NCBI GenBank assembly: GCA_963704725.1
Contig: OY969934.1
Span: forward strand, 2,656,001 to 2,720,000
DNA length: 64,000 bases
Direction: 5' to 3'
Origin: an uncultured Actinomycetes bacterium
Lineage (GTDB): Bacteria > Actinomycetota > UBA4738 > HRBIN12
The notes under the pieces were generated by a model. That model did not search any database. It was not told the origin of the DNA and was given only the letters and a program-made list of their open reading frames with translations. The translations under genes were made by a program, and so were the position numbers. How positions within the stretch are numbered: position 1 is the first letter of the stretch; every line of letters starts with the position of its first letter. This document shows, in pieces, positions 37,572 to 42,091 of this stretch.

Positions 37572-38359
37572 GGCGGTCGGGGGCGCTCCTCACGCTCGTG
37601 CTGACCCTGGGCCTGCTCGCGGCCTGCGATCGTTCCGGCGGTGACGCAGCCTCGCCGACCCCCGCGTCCTCCCCAAGTCCGAGCCCCTCGGTACCGAACC
37701 CTACGACGGGTCCGCCGCCCACGCCCACCCCCACGCCGAACCCGACGGTGAGCCCGACCCCCTCCCCGGTGCTGCACCTGCCCCCGGACGCCCCCACGAC
37801 CTACGACGGCACGCTGACCGACGACCTCGCGCCGCTCGCACCGCCCGGCGCGACCCTGACGTCGACGGCGAGCTTCTCAACCCCCGAGGATCCGGTCGAT
37901 CTGGTGGCGTTCGCCTGGCGGCGCGGAGATCCGTTCGCCGGCGAGCTCGGCTTCTCCGTGTGGCAGCGCTTCGAGGACTCCCCGGCCTGGCGGGCGGTGT
38001 CGGCGTTCACCGACGGACCCGCCAAGGGCGTCCTCGGGATCACGTTCGGGGCGGCGGACCTGACCGGGGACGGAATCTCGGACTTCCTCACCCGGGAGGA
38101 CCGCGGCGGCAGCGGCGCCTGCGCCACGTGGAGGGTGCTCAGCCCGGCCCAGGGCACCGCGACCCAGGTCTTCCGCCACGGCGGGTGCGACACGTCGATC
38201 GAGCTCGGCGAAGGCGCGTCGCTCACGGTCCGAGAGGCCGTGTTCGAGCCCGGCGACTCCCACTGCTGCCCGAGCGCGTTCCGGACGACGACGCTGGAGT
38301 GGGATGGTTCCGCGTTCGTCGAGACGGACGTCGTCGAGTCACCGGCCCCGAGCCCCTAA
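37568..38359 (+). CDS. Lipoprotein with Pro/Thr linker and CCPS motif
   Basis: Lipobox LAAC, PT-rich linker, 'DLTGDG', 'GGSG', 'DSHCCPS'. The stop TAA is completed by the IS110 left end. Confidence 0.7.
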   Translation: MRRSGALLTLVLTLGLLAACDRSGGDAASPTPASSPSPSPSVPNPTTGPPPTPTPTPNPTVSPTPSPVLHLPPDAPTTYDGTLTDDLAPLAPPGATLTSTASFSTPEDPVDLVAFAWRRGDPFAGELGFSVWQRFEDSPAWRAVSAFTDGPAKGVLGITFGAADLTGDGISDFLTREDRGGSGACATWRVLSPAQGTATQVFRHGGCDTSIELGEGASLTVREAVFEPGDSHCCPSAFRTTTLEWDGSAFVETDVVESPAPSP

Positions 38360-38399
38360 TGGGACCCGACGGCGTGCGTTGGGGCATGCTGTCCCTGAG

Positions 38400-38535
38400 C
38401 CGCCGGCGGGTGAGCACTGCTGAGCCCAGAGCCCTCAAGCTCTACGTCTAGATCGTGCCCCCACCGGTTGGCGAGGGGGTCTGACGGCTGGTGGGATGGC
38501 GTGCCTCGAGCACTGATCCATTAGGTCGCCGCGTA
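38400..38535 (+). ncRNA. Putative IS110 bridge RNA (target- and donor-binding loops); boundaries approximate
   Basis: Four guide segments match the insertion site and the element's own ends, and each pair flanks a small hairpin (details in findings). Confidence 0.8.
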
Positions 38536-38572
38536 CCTCCTCCGGGCTCAGCGGCCCCGGAAAGGAGGAGTC

Positions 38573-39787
38573 GTGATCTTCGTCGGCATCGATTGGGCCG
38601 AGGCGCGCCACGACGTCTGCGTGCTCGATGATCAAGGGCACGTCGTGGCCAAGGGGCGAGTGCCTGACGGCGTGGAGGGCCTCGGCCTCCTGCACGCCAT
38701 GGTGGCCGATCACGCGGAGGACCCGACCGAGGTGGTGGTCGGTATCGAGCTCGACCGTGGACTGCTGGTGGGATCTCTCGTCGAGAGTGGCTACCACGTC
38801 TACGCGGTCAATCCCTTCTCGGTCTCGAGGTACCGCGATCGCCACGCGACCTCCGGCGCCAAGTCCGACCCGGGCGATGCGAAGGTCCTCGCCGATCTCG
38901 TACGCACCGATCGGCAGAACCACCGGGAGGTGGCCGGCGACACCGAGCTCGCCGAGGCAATCAAGGTGCTCGCCCGGGCGCATCAGTCGTTCGTCTGGTC
39001 GCGCCAGCGGCAGGTGAACCAGCTCCGGAGCATGCTTCGAGAGTTCTACCCGGGTGCGCTGCAGGCGCTGAGCGGTGATCTTTCTTCCCACGAGGCGTGC
39101 AGCATCTTGGGAATGGCCCCCACGCCTGAGTTGGGACGACGTCTCACGCGCTCGAGGATCCGGCGCTCCCTCGCTGGCTCTGGTCGCTCACGCAACCTCG
39201 ATCGGAAGGCGGAGCAGATCTATGAGGCCCTGCATGCTCCTCAGCTGGAGGCCCCGTCTGTGCTGGCCGAGGCCTACGGGGAGGTCGTCGGCTCGCTCGT
39301 GCTCGTGATCGATCGCCTCACGCACCAGATCGGACAGCTGGAGCGCCAGCTCGCCCAGCGTTTTGAAGGTCACCCGGACGCCGAGATCCTGCGCAGTCTT
39401 CCCGGACTCGGCCTGATCCTCGGCGCCCGGGTGCTGGCGGAGTTCGGGGACGACCCGACCCGCTACGAAGATGCTAGGGCGAGGAGGTGCTATGCGGGAA
39501 GCGCCCCGGTCACCAGGGCTTCGGGAAAGCGGCTCGTCGTGCTGGCCCGGGTGGCTCGCAACCGCCGCCTCGCCGACGCCTGTTACCTCTGGGCCTTCTC
39601 CGCGCTCAGTGCCTCGCCGGGCGCTCGTCGCTACTACGACGCCCGACGGGCTCGAGGAGCCACCCACCACCAGGCGCTGCGCGCGCTCTCGAACCGCCTC
39701 GTCGGCGTCCTTCACGGGTGCCTCCGACACCGGAGTCACTACTGCGAGGAGATCGCTTGGCCAGGCTCGCTCGATGCCGCGGTTTGA
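38573..39787 (+). CDS. IS110 family transposase / recombinase
   Basis: DEDD RuvC-like residues (GIDWA, GIE, KSDPGDA) and C-terminal 'YAGSAPVTRASG' with the catalytic Ser; RBS AAAGGAGGAG. Confidence 0.95.
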   Translation: MIFVGIDWAEARHDVCVLDDQGHVVAKGRVPDGVEGLGLLHAMVADHAEDPTEVVVGIELDRGLLVGSLVESGYHVYAVNPFSVSRYRDRHATSGAKSDPGDAKVLADLVRTDRQNHREVAGDTELAEAIKVLARAHQSFVWSRQRQVNQLRSMLREFYPGALQALSGDLSSHEACSILGMAPTPELGRRLTRSRIRRSLAGSGRSRNLDRKAEQIYEALHAPQLEAPSVLAEAYGEVVGSLVLVIDRLTHQIGQLERQLAQRFEGHPDAEILRSLPGLGLILGARVLAEFGDDPTRYEDARARRCYAGSAPVTRASGKRLVVLARVARNRRLADACYLWAFSALSASPGARRYYDARRARGATHHQALRALSNRLVGVLHGCLRHRSHYCEEIAWPGSLDAAV

Positions 39788-39808
39788 CGTCTTCGGGCCG
39801 TGGGATGT

Positions 39809-42091
39809 CTAGACGAGCACGGCCGTGCTCCGGCGCCGCCCCGTCTTCTGCACCAGGATCGAGGCGGGGAACTGGTCCTTCACCCGCTCGGCGTGCGTGA
39901 TCACGAAGAGCTGGTGGAAGCGCGACGCGAGCCTGCCGAGCGCGAGGACCATGAGGTCCTTGCGCTCCTCGTCGAGCGAGGCGAGGACCTCATCGAGCAC
40001 CATCATGCCGACGTCGGCGCCCGAGACACGGGAAAGGTGCGTCGAGATCGCCACCCGCAGGGCGAGGTTGGCGAGGTCGGTCTCGGAGCCCGAGAACCGC
40101 CCGATCGGGAAGTACGTGTCGCCGTCGGCGATCTGGATCGACAGGGTCTCCTCGTCGACCCGGAGGTCGTCGTACTCGTGGTTGGTGAGCTCGCGGAACA
40201 GCGACTCGGCCTCTCGGGAGAGCTCGGGGCCGACGCGCCCCACGAGGTGGTCGCGGAACCCGTCCAGGAGCATCGCCACGCGCTCGACGTAGCGAGCCTC
40301 CGACCGCAGCTCCTCGACCTTCGCCTGGATCTCCCTCGCGCGCTCCAGACCCGCGGCGAGCTCGGCCGCTCGCTTCTCGGCGTCCTTGCGCGCGTCGCTC
40401 GCGGTCCGTTCGGCCGCGCGAGCGGCCTCCAGGATGGCGGAAGCCTCCTCGCAGGCCGAGCGGAGCCGCTCGTGCTCGCCCTGGTCGAAGGCCAACCCCT
40501 CGGCCTCCTCGGCGAGCGCGGCCAGCTCGTCCTCGAGCGCGCCCAGGCCGTCCTCCGCCGCCGCCAGGTCGCCCGTCGCGGTCTCGAGATGCTTGCGCTC
40601 GACCCCGAGCTCGGCGACCCGCGCGGCGAGCTCCCTGGCCCGGCCCGCCCGCGCTCGGACCTCGTCCACGTCGGGGATCTCCTGCCCGAACGGCTCGCCG
40701 AGCAGCACGACCTCGGCCCGCATCGTGGCGACCCCCTCGGTCAGCCGCGACCTCGCAGCGCCGGCCTCCCGGGCGGCCCGGCCCGCCACCGCGGCGACAC
40801 GGTGCGCCCGCTCCGCCCGGTCGAGATCGGCGGCCGCGCGCTTCGACGTCCCGTCCGCGGCCTTCGCCGCCTTCGCCGCGTCGGCCGCCGCCGCCCGGCA
40901 GTGCCTCACGTAGTCGGCGAAGTCCGAGCCGAGGGGACGGCCGCACGTGGGGCACGGCTGCTCCGGATCCGCCTCCGCCGTGTGCGCCAGCCGCTCCTCG
41001 GCCTCCCCGAGCGCGGCTTGGCGCTGCCCCAGCTCCGCCTGCGCTTCGGCGGCGGACGTCCGTGCCGCGGCGAGGGCGGCGTCGGCCTCCTCGAGCCCCG
41101 CCTCGGCGGCCTCGACGTCGGGCTCCGGCTGCCCGGCGAGCTCGAGCTCCGCAGCCGCCAGCCGCTCGGAGGCCTCGGCCAGCCGGGTCGCCGCACGCAA
41201 CCGCTCCTCCACGTCGCCGAGCTCTCGCAGCTCCTCGTCCAGCGCCGGAAGGTCCTCCAGGTCGGCGGCCAGCACGTCGACCCGCTGGACCAGCGCGTCT
41301 CGCCGCTCGACGAGCGCGTCGCGCTGCTCGACCTTGCCGGCCAGGCGAACCGTGAGCTTCTCGACGCGCTCGCGAACGGCGTCAAGGTCGGCGAACGCCC
41401 GATCCGCAGCCCGGGCGGCCGCGGTGGCCGTGCGCAGCTCTGCCGCGGCGGCGGTCGATAGCTTCTTCGCCTCGCCCGCCGCTTCTTTCGCGTCCTTCAG
41501 CTCCGCCTCGAGCGCCGCGAGGTCGCCCACCGCCTCCGCCAGCTGGACCGCGCCGGCCTTCGCGGTCCGGGACTCCCGGCGGGCGGCGGCCCTCGCGTCG
41601 TCGACGGGCTTGATGCCGAGCAGCCGAAGCGCCATCTCCTTGCGCTTGCCCGGCGTCACCTCCGAGAACGCGTCGAGCTGCTTCTGCTCCGCATAGACGG
41701 AGGCCTTGAAGATCGGCAGCTCCATGTGCAGGAGGCGACGGACCTCGGCGTCGACGTCGGTGGTGCCCGAGGCGAGCAGGAGGTCGCCGCCCGAGAGCTC
41801 GGCCTCGGGCGTGTGGCCGCGGCCCTTGAGCGAGCGCCGAACCTCGTAGTGCTGCCCGGCGTGCTCAAACACGAGGCGGATCTCGCAGTCGGTGAGGACG
41901 CCGTGGGTGCGGATGGCCTGCTTCTCCGTCCGCGCGGCCTTCACCCCGTACAGGGCTAAGGCGATGGCCTCCAGGAGGGAGCTCTTCCCGCTTCCGTTCT
42001 CGCCGAACACGCCGATCACCCGCGCCGGGAGCTCGAGGTCGACCTCCTCGAACACACGGTAGTTGCGCAGCGACAGCTCCAGGACCCTCAC
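39809..42091 (-). CDS. Rad50/SbcC-type SMC ATPase
   Basis: Walker A 'GENGSGKSS', Q-loop, coiled coil with zinc hook 'CPTCGRPL', signature 'FSGSE', Walker B 'MVLDE..SLD', 'ITH'. Confidence 0.92.
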   Translation of the reverse strand: MRVLELSLRNYRVFEEVDLELPARVIGVFGENGSGKSSLLEAIALALYGVKAARTEKQAIRTHGVLTDCEIRLVFEHAGQHYEVRRSLKGRGHTPEAELSGGDLLLASGTTDVDAEVRRLLHMELPIFKASVYAEQKQLDAFSEVTPGKRKEMALRLLGIKPVDDARAAARRESRTAKAGAVQLAEAVGDLAALEAELKDAKEAAGEAKKLSTAAAAELRTATAAARAADRAFADLDAVRERVEKLTVRLAGKVEQRDALVERRDALVQRVDVLAADLEDLPALDEELRELGDVEERLRAATRLAEASERLAAAELELAGQPEPDVEAAEAGLEEADAALAAARTSAAEAQAELGQRQAALGEAEERLAHTAEADPEQPCPTCGRPLGSDFADYVRHCRAAAADAAKAAKAADGTSKRAAADLDRAERAHRVAAVAGRAAREAGAARSRLTEGVATMRAEVVLLGEPFGQEIPDVDEVRARAGRARELAARVAELGVERKHLETATGDLAAAEDGLGALEDELAALAEEAEGLAFDQGEHERLRSACEEASAILEAARAAERTASDARKDAEKRAAELAAGLERAREIQAKVEELRSEARYVERVAMLLDGFRDHLVGRVGPELSREAESLFRELTNHEYDDLRVDEETLSIQIADGDTYFPIGRFSGSETDLANLALRVAISTHLSRVSGADVGMMVLDEVLASLDEERKDLMVLALGRLASRFHQLFVITHAERVKDQFPASILVQKTGRRRSTAVLV

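Follow-up and report, generated by a model that had tools for sequence, protein, structure and literature searches.

Does an IS110-group insertion sequence in the genome of an uncultured Actinomycetes bacterium (GTDB lineage Bacteria; Actinomycetota; UBA4738; HRBIN12) carry a bridge RNA of its own, and does that RNA read the host DNA beside the element as well as the element's own ends? The element lies in a 64,000-nucleotide stretch of contig OY969934.1 (assembly GCA_963704725.1, positions 2,656,001 to 2,720,000 of the forward strand), which we call the window and in which all coordinates below are counted. Bridge RNAs have been described for IS621 of E. coli (Durrant et al. 2024, PMC11208160; Hiraizumi et al. 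2024, PMC11208158), and the parts of this work on which we draw predict them in 85.7% of IS110-group elements. An initial annotation of the window, made from its letters alone, had proposed an IS621-type bridge RNA with four guide segments. Our comparison with related insertions indicates that the locus is very probably an intact IS110-group element with such an RNA, placed between two convergent host genes. The element occupies 38358-39808 (1451 bp) and has a CT core on both sides (38356-57; 39809-10). Its parts are:

38348..38355, + strand: left target arm, host flank CCGAGCCC, the end of the upstream + strand open reading frame.
38356..38357, + strand: core dinucleotide CT, left copy, with the boundary ambiguous inside a shared CTA.
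38358..39808, + strand: IS110-group body, with a left end of 215 nt (38358-38572) and a right end of 21 nt (39788-39808).
38358..38362, + strand: right donor arm AATGG, which with the core makes CTAATGG and pairs with the right donor guide.
38573..39787, + strand: IS110-family recombinase gene, 404 amino acids, PF01548 and PF02371.
39784..39789, + strand: TTGACG, a -35-like hexamer overlapping the stop codon.
39800..39808, + strand: left donor arm GTGGGATGT.
39809..39810, + strand: core CT, right copy.
39811..39815, + strand: right target arm AGACG, host flank, which with the core is the end of an SbcC-like gene on the - strand.

The left end holds four segments that can be compared with these arms, the left and right target guides (LTG and RTG) and the left and right donor guides (LDG and RDG), together with two short handshake positions:

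38420..38427, + strand: LTG CTGAGCCC, its position fixed by homology.
38445..38451, + strand: RTG CGTCTAG, reading the core CT and AGACG, 7/7.
38452..38453, + strand: target-loop handshake guide AU, positioned by analogy with IS621.
38491..38500, + strand: LDG GTGGGATGGC, with eight matches, a mismatch at donor -1 and the core C, 9/10.
38518..38524, + strand: RDG CCATTAG, 7/7.
38525..38525, + strand: donor-loop handshake guide G, pairing with target -1 (the C at 38355).

The RTG is the exact reverse complement of CTAGACG at 39809-15 and the RDG that of CTAATGG at 38356-62, while the first eight bases of the LDG (GTGGGATG, 38491-98) are identical to 39800-07. All strings and coordinates of the initial annotation were found in the window as it gave them. 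Its claim that all four guides match their own target and donor stands for three: the second internal loop fits both donor arms (LDG 9/10 including the core C, RDG 7/7) and the first fits the right target arm (RTG 7/7), but the LTG reaches 7/8 only when shifted one base out of the register used by its family, in which it scores 4/8. When 38358-38572 was shuffled 20000 times with dinucleotides preserved, the exact RTG segment arose in 242 shuffles, the LDG segment in 226 and the RDG segment in 38; all four segments together arose in none.

A search of the 3.45-Mb genome for further copies found none besides the window's own, and the comparison was therefore made with relatives. Recombinase searches had hits in 14 of 41 related genomes and gave 20 loci from genome contigs and 80 from metagenome contigs, at 30-86% identity. 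In all, 106 sequences were screened and 78 could be parsed for both loops; 24 without a donor-loop anchor and four without target-loop anchors, either truncated at contig ends or at 30-50% identity, are omitted from all counts. Each guide was then compared with its own flank or end, and the observed mean was set against 2000 re-pairings, a control that ignores relatedness although several of the rows come from one and the same element or from sister elements, and whose counts are not probabilities. Mean matches were 5.83 against 3.38 shuffled for the LTG (66 pairs), 6.65 against 5.06 for the RTG (52 pairs), 8.67 against 7.68 for the LDG (15 distinct pairs) and 7.30 against 6.84 for the RDG (23 distinct pairs), and for each guide 0/2000 re-pairings reached the observed value. 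Related insertions thus resemble their own guides at flanks and ends, as the initial annotation had expected. For instance, the relative L041 has the right donor arm AATAG and the matching RDG CTATTAG. The target guides are hypervariable: those of the window are 0.59 (LTG, 19/32) and 0.62 (RTG) identical to those of its four nearest relatives, whose proteins are 73-86% identical. For the scaffold the value is 0.94 (537/573) and for the donor guides 1.00.

In the LTG the matches climb from 0.42 at position -7 to 0.98 at -1, against 0.25-0.37 in the shuffled pairs (66 pairs). In the RTG they lie at 0.73-1.00 over the core and the five bases after it, with the next two at background (52 pairs). 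The LDG reads nine bases and the core C, with donor -1 matched in only 0.40 (15 distinct pairs), and the RDG reads the core and five bases (23 distinct pairs). The core C is matched at 0.95 by the LTG (shuffled 0.95) and at 0.93 by the LDG (shuffled 0.93); because this base is nearly constant, its match to the left guides is agreement and not covariation. The core T is matched at 0.15 by the LTG and 0.00 by the LDG. Further, the donor-loop base after the RDG, which the initial annotation lacked, is complementary to target -1 in 0.88 against 0.38 shuffled (48 pairs; 0/2000 reach the observed value) and to its own donor in 0.11 (shuffled 0.06), a pattern that identifies it as a predicted handshake pairing of the kind described for IS621. 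The first base of the target-loop handshake matches donor -1 in 0.77, an A opposite donor T, and since it is nearly constant it cannot covary. In the window the AU faces the GT with which the left donor arm ends (A-T and U-G), and it could pair with this GT after strand exchange, by analogy with IS621.

Do the guides sit in a conserved RNA? Beyond the guides, the following pairing elements were placed in the left end:

38368..38393, + strand: 5' stem-loop GACGGCGTGC / GCATGCTGTC, with two G-U pairs, read from sequence.
38402..38417, + strand: target-binding loop, 5' strand of the basal stems, pairing with 38455-38468.
38428..38443, + strand: target-binding loop, distal hairpin AGAGC/CCTCAA/GCTCT, with compensatory changes in 4/4 pairs.
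38455..38468, + strand: target-binding loop, 3' strand of the basal stems.
38473..38488, + strand: donor-binding loop, 5' strands of the basal stems, GAGGGGGT with 38535-42 and CGGC with 38528-31.
38501..38513, + strand: donor-binding loop, distal hairpin GTGC/CTCGA/GCAC.
38528..38542, + strand: donor-binding loop, 3' strands of the basal stems, including CCUCCUC.

RNAalifold, run on a structure alignment of 48 distinct left ends, recovered two stem-loops with internal loops, each with its basal and distal stems. Its consensus pairs are paired in 95.6% of cells and show changes on both sides in 16/32 pairs, and 0/500 shuffles reach any of these measures; when partners were slid by one to three columns, pairing fell to 35-51%. 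Both-side changes are found in 7/9 pairs of the target-loop basal stem (helix 54-64/121-129) and in 7/8 pairs of the donor-loop outer stem (38473-80/38535-42), which is 80% paired. Frequent + strand G-U pairs fit an RNA read from the + strand, and all stems are intact in the window copy. The 5' stem-loop is absent from the RNAalifold consensus, where it is not well enough aligned; relatives carry different, self-complementary arms at the same place, seen by eye only. Given the compensatory changes in the stems and guides that covary with flanks and ends across relatives, we consider it very likely that the left end would encode an IS621-type bridge RNA with a 5' stem-loop, a target-binding loop and a donor-binding loop, in agreement with the initial annotation.

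By analogy with IS621, the target-binding loop would read the insertion site and the donor-binding loop the element's own ends. The LDG (38491-500) would match the right end and the RDG (38518-24) the left end, so that together they would recognise the circle junction. The RNA-bound DEDD/Ser recombinase would then join circle junction and target and exchange strands at CT, after which one base behind each right guide would guide the handshake with the other DNA.

Another proposal needs no guide RNA: the left end could be a leader or a set of protein-binding DNA repeats, its matches to the ends being ordinary subterminal repeats. Viewed as DNA, the donor-loop segments do repeat the element's ends, the right end in direct and the left end in inverted orientation, and they are nearly constant in the clade. 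This proposal fails, however, to explain why the target-loop segments track host flanks that differ at every insertion, nor does it account for the compensatory changes or the G-U pairs of the stems. We therefore regard it as very improbable.

The left target guide is where the window departs from its relatives. A unique best register puts the last LTG base, just before the hairpin, on the core C in 50/67 non-redundant related insertions, and the window is one of three insertions whose unique best register is shifted by +1. In three others (L082, L091 and L109) the hairpin limits were parsed one base off and were counted as register -1, and L017, L105 and L092 fit poorly and were kept in the counts. 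The LTG match of the window carries weight only because it falls at the homology-defined position of the guide. In the family register the window LTG matches 3/7 flank bases and the core C (4/8), and in the register of the initial annotation 7/8, with the mismatch a possible U-G wobble. Three core-proximal bases of the target pair with the LTG in the family register, and bulging out one C of the four-C run in the target reconciles the two registers.

How rare is such a site? Taken alone, the 7/8 match is less telling than the initial annotation had supposed, as 6153/20000 shuffles (31%) of the left end contain, at some position, an 8-mer that differs from the left flank by at most one base, and the real left end has a second 7/8 match at 38427-34. 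Three strings of the GAGCC type in the left end look like the left flank (38396-38402, 38420-38427, 38428-38434), and upstream of the target loop the family conserves a scaffold motif identical to the flank CCGAGCC. With the register fixed, a score of at least 7/8 to the LTG is found at 176/334,831 genomic CT sites; 1571/334,831 equal or beat the real site in the family register. When the guides were run in register against genomic CT sites, the best site scored 10/12 and the real one 8/12, which is in the top 0.5%; under an alignment with a one-base bulge the real site scores 11/12 and only one other genomic site equals it. Among the 34 genomic CTAGACG sites, none reaches at least 6/8 to the LTG in the preceding 8-mer, against 7/8 at the reconstructed site.

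These counts bear on what we regard as the main rival, an insertion directed by half a match, in which the RTG and core alone would have sufficed and the shifted 7/8 likeness of the LTG would be a coincidence of GC-rich sequence. Such insertions, with pairing across the core and one arm, have been reported for IS621 (10.64898/2026.08.31.748434). The 3/7 flank bases in the family register, the 31% of shuffles with a comparable match and the resemblance of the flank to the scaffold motif CCGAGCC all agree with it. At a fixed position and register, however, only 176/334,831 CT sites reach a 7/8 match, and the chance is about 0.2% if a few registers are allowed. In addition, pairing in register is kept at the three core-proximal bases, and a relative shows the same pattern as the window. 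We accordingly hold a half-match insertion to be unlikely.

In that relative, L050, the target likewise exceeds its guide by one base: the guide is GAGTAC-AGC, the flank is GAGTACCAGC, and the extra base is again a C. Its LTG match is perfect once the extra target C is allowed, and its recombinase match is truncated at residue 317. Two other origins of the slip were considered and are unlikely. A recent deletion in the LTG is at odds with L018, which carries the identical LTG in another genome, and an indel in the C run of the flank after insertion is at odds with a flank that is in frame and with relatives that end alike ([A/C]CC TAG).

The initial annotation had read the left guides as skipping the core, as a variant scheme. 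This does not hold for the relatives, whose left guides read the core C and not the core T; judged from these alignments, the left guides of the clade read half of the core, and the window LTG is an apparent one-base register outlier and not the rule. Its site is, on the same evidence, a near-cognate and not an ideal one, with one bulged C or a register shifted by one. It is possible, though we put it forward only tentatively, that this soil clade has a modified pairing in which the left guides read the first core base only, the base of the loop hairpin stands in for the second, donor -1 is usually unpaired and a target one base longer than the left guide, as in the window and L050, is tolerated.

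Where the element begins and ends can be read from genomes that lack it. The left-flank gene is present in 29/41 genomes searched, the window's own included. Among 11 left-flank loci of relatives, three also hold the right flank, and in 3/3 the two flanks are adjacent, leaving an empty site; the remaining 8/11 are without the right flank and uninformative on this point. The empty sites read ...CGACGAC-CT-AGACGAGG (L009), ...CGCGCC-CT-AGACGAGC (L006) and ...GGCGG-CT-AGACCAGG (L013), from other species at 70-86% identity and not from the same strain. Those of L009 and L006 end CT/AGACGAG, with the core CT present once there and at both junctions in the window. Sequence comparison with these empty alleles, which show the same junction in all three related genomes, confirms the boundaries of the initial annotation to within the CTA shared by both ends.

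The window is high-GC DNA. The + strand open reading frame on the left flank has no Pfam match, and the - strand gene on the right encodes an SbcC/SMC-like ATPase. The insertion point is a CTAG where the stop codons of these two convergent genes overlap (38354-38359; 39809-39811). The element's first bases turn the TAG of the left gene into TAA, so neither host gene is damaged. Right target arms in the clade mostly start with AG, and targets therefore often contain the rare CTAG.

Is the recombinase intact, as the initial annotation stated? Its reading frame is the only long, family-assigned one in the element, and it matches PF01548 (126.3 bits, 1.2e-36) and PF02371 (53.3 bits, 3.6e-14), both over the full profile length. 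Residues D7, E59, D99, D102 and G318 are invariant in 48/48 distinct relatives and S317 is kept in 47/48. In the IS621 source, as far as it is used here, D11, D102, D105 and S241-G242 (chain numbering offset by two) align with D7, D99, D102 and S317-G318; E59 is probably the equivalent of IS621 E60, a place at which the alignment is shifted by two. Among solved structures, ISCro4 (PDB 9t56; E = 3.3e-10) and IS621 (E = 2.9e-9 with phmmer) are the nearest. With its full length and with D7, E59, D99, D102 and S317-G318 kept, the gene is, by sequence, a predicted intact DEDD/Ser-type recombinase, and the claim of an intact transposase stands.

Within this gene, the Rfam family Ms_AS-4 (RF02464, an actinobacterial small RNA) matches 39397-39478 on the - strand, antisense to the recombinase, with 63.3 bits against a gathering score of 50. 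The match overlies the conserved PF02371 region, and the family may simply model conserved IS110 coding sequence.

The right ends of the clade were also compared for promoter-like motifs. A TTGAC lies 24-25 nt upstream of the core in 47/47 distinct right ends, and the predicted junction of right end and left end creates the hexamer TCTAAT (TCT/AAT) in 43/44. This layout resembles the circle-junction promoter described in the cited parts of the IS621 work, but the TTGA overlaps the stop codon and C-terminal codons, and the -10 hexamer departs from the usual form at position 2. Scanned for promoters and terminators, the integrated locus gave 0 sites, so that the integrated copy, having no promoter-like site, would be readable only by read-through from the upstream gene.

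Several observations weigh against our reading of the locus, in addition to the 4/8 LTG match with its 1571 equal or better genomic sites and the relatedness that the shuffle controls ignore. The element is present as a single copy in the one-contig genome, without a within-genome sign of recent movement. The junction -10 hexamer TCTAAT has a C at position 2, where A is nearly invariant, and it falls outside the promoter rule of the scan. No public sequencing run contained above 0.15 of the words sampled from the stretch; in the metatranscriptome run X13 coverage is confined to conserved pieces, at 90-95% likeness, and its contigs cannot show transcription. An Rfam scan of the left end gave no match, and it is uncertain whether Rfam 15 includes a bridge-RNA family. 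Finally, the single-sequence fold of the left end (38358-38572), which the initial annotation had named as a check, has -105.9 kcal/mol and z = -1.87, with 7/200 shuffles folding as well; it is not significant, did not return the two-loop form and was dropped as evidence. The two-loop architecture stands because of the 48-sequence comparison and not because of this fold.

These points also touch the idea that the copy is an immobile relic, with an RNA and a gene that look intact in an element that no longer moves and would not be a usable recombinase. The single copy, the LDG mismatch at donor -1, the LTG off register on its own site and the integrated context without a promoter-like site all fit this idea. 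Yet the gene has a full-length reading frame that keeps every catalytic residue, all stems are intact, and the donor -1 mismatch, common to 60% of relatives, is thus no defect of the window copy. Contigs of two soil metagenomes also carry an element about 93% identical, which matches the window only over 38354-39815, and one of these contigs runs on into a different left flank. From its sequence, this pattern would be the expected look of a second insertion with the same right guide. Weighing both sides, we think a relic rather unlikely, if a little less so than a half-match insertion, and return to the reading of an intact element with its own bridge RNA.

How close is this element to known systems? 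In the parts of the IS621 work cited here, IS621 shares with it a DEDD RuvC-like domain and a Tnp domain with a catalytic Ser-Gly, a long left end with the RNA, a short right end and a CT core, and an RNA with a 5' stem-loop and two internal loops. It also shares left guides in the top-strand sense, right guides complementary to the core and right arm, a handshake guide directly 3' of the right guide and a -35-like hexamer in the right end. The IS621 protein is nevertheless distant (the E-value given above) and has 326 amino acids (a 328-residue PDB chain) against 404 here. The RTG is naturally 7 nt in our element, whereas the native RTG described for IS621 is 4 nt, with 7 nt an engineered or orthologue feature. 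Likewise, the 9-nt LTG of IS621 is described as including both core bases, whereas the LTG and LDG of the clade reach the core C only, and the mismatch of donor -1 to the LDG in 60% of the clade is unlike IS621 as described. The ISCro4 transposase is the best solved relative, with both domains aligning, and it too is distant. The IS1111 group has the same recombinase family, and its seekRNA reads both target and donor (PMC13604230 for seekRNA, as far as that source is used here). There, however, the RNA lies in a long right end with longer subterminal inverted repeats, and with a left end of 215 nt and a right end of 21 nt our element belongs to the IS110 group and not to IS1111. Its Pfam domains and catalytic residues, long left end, scarless CT core, stem-loops, donor pairing, guide covariation and handshake were all found as predicted for an IS110-group element.

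Some features of the RNA and its relatives are of separate interest. The CCUCCUC of the donor-loop outer stem (38536-42) has two alternative partners, GAGGGGG at 38473-79 in that stem and the recombinase ribosome-binding site GGAGGAG at 38564-70. The CCUCCUC/GGAGGAG hairpin appears in the minimum-energy fold and both partners are conserved in relatives, and the bridge RNA might, depending on how it folds, control translation of its own recombinase through such a switch. Relatives at 50-66% protein identity (L041-L059) carry assembly labels of Actinomycetota, Dormiibacterota, Chloroflexia, Egibacteraceae, Acidimicrobiales and Planomonospora, and such mixed labels mean that the clade crosses phyla, mostly in soil-type samples. 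In L101, about 45 nt upstream of the left end, there is the right end of another copy (TTGACA ... GGGGTAT-CT), 10 bp ahead of the CT of that left end, so that two elements lie nearly tandem on one target. In L017, the right flank matches the RTG at 4/7, while the left guide, with both core bases included, and the donor guides fit well; this right junction could reflect an insertion by half a match or a rearrangement at a later time.

Bridge RNAs have been known since 2024 and are predicted in most IS110 elements, and the main result is therefore a sound annotation and not a discovery. Its practical value lies in a compact, predicted intact recombinase from a high-GC host, with a naturally 7-nt RTG and a working-looking handshake position, both of which are features that improved IS621 when engineered, according to the cited parts of that work. 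For this branch of the IS110 family, the roughly 60 natural guide/target pairs amount to a pairing map, and a natural site that is off register by one base gives a hint on bulge tolerance that bears on the prediction of off-target sites.

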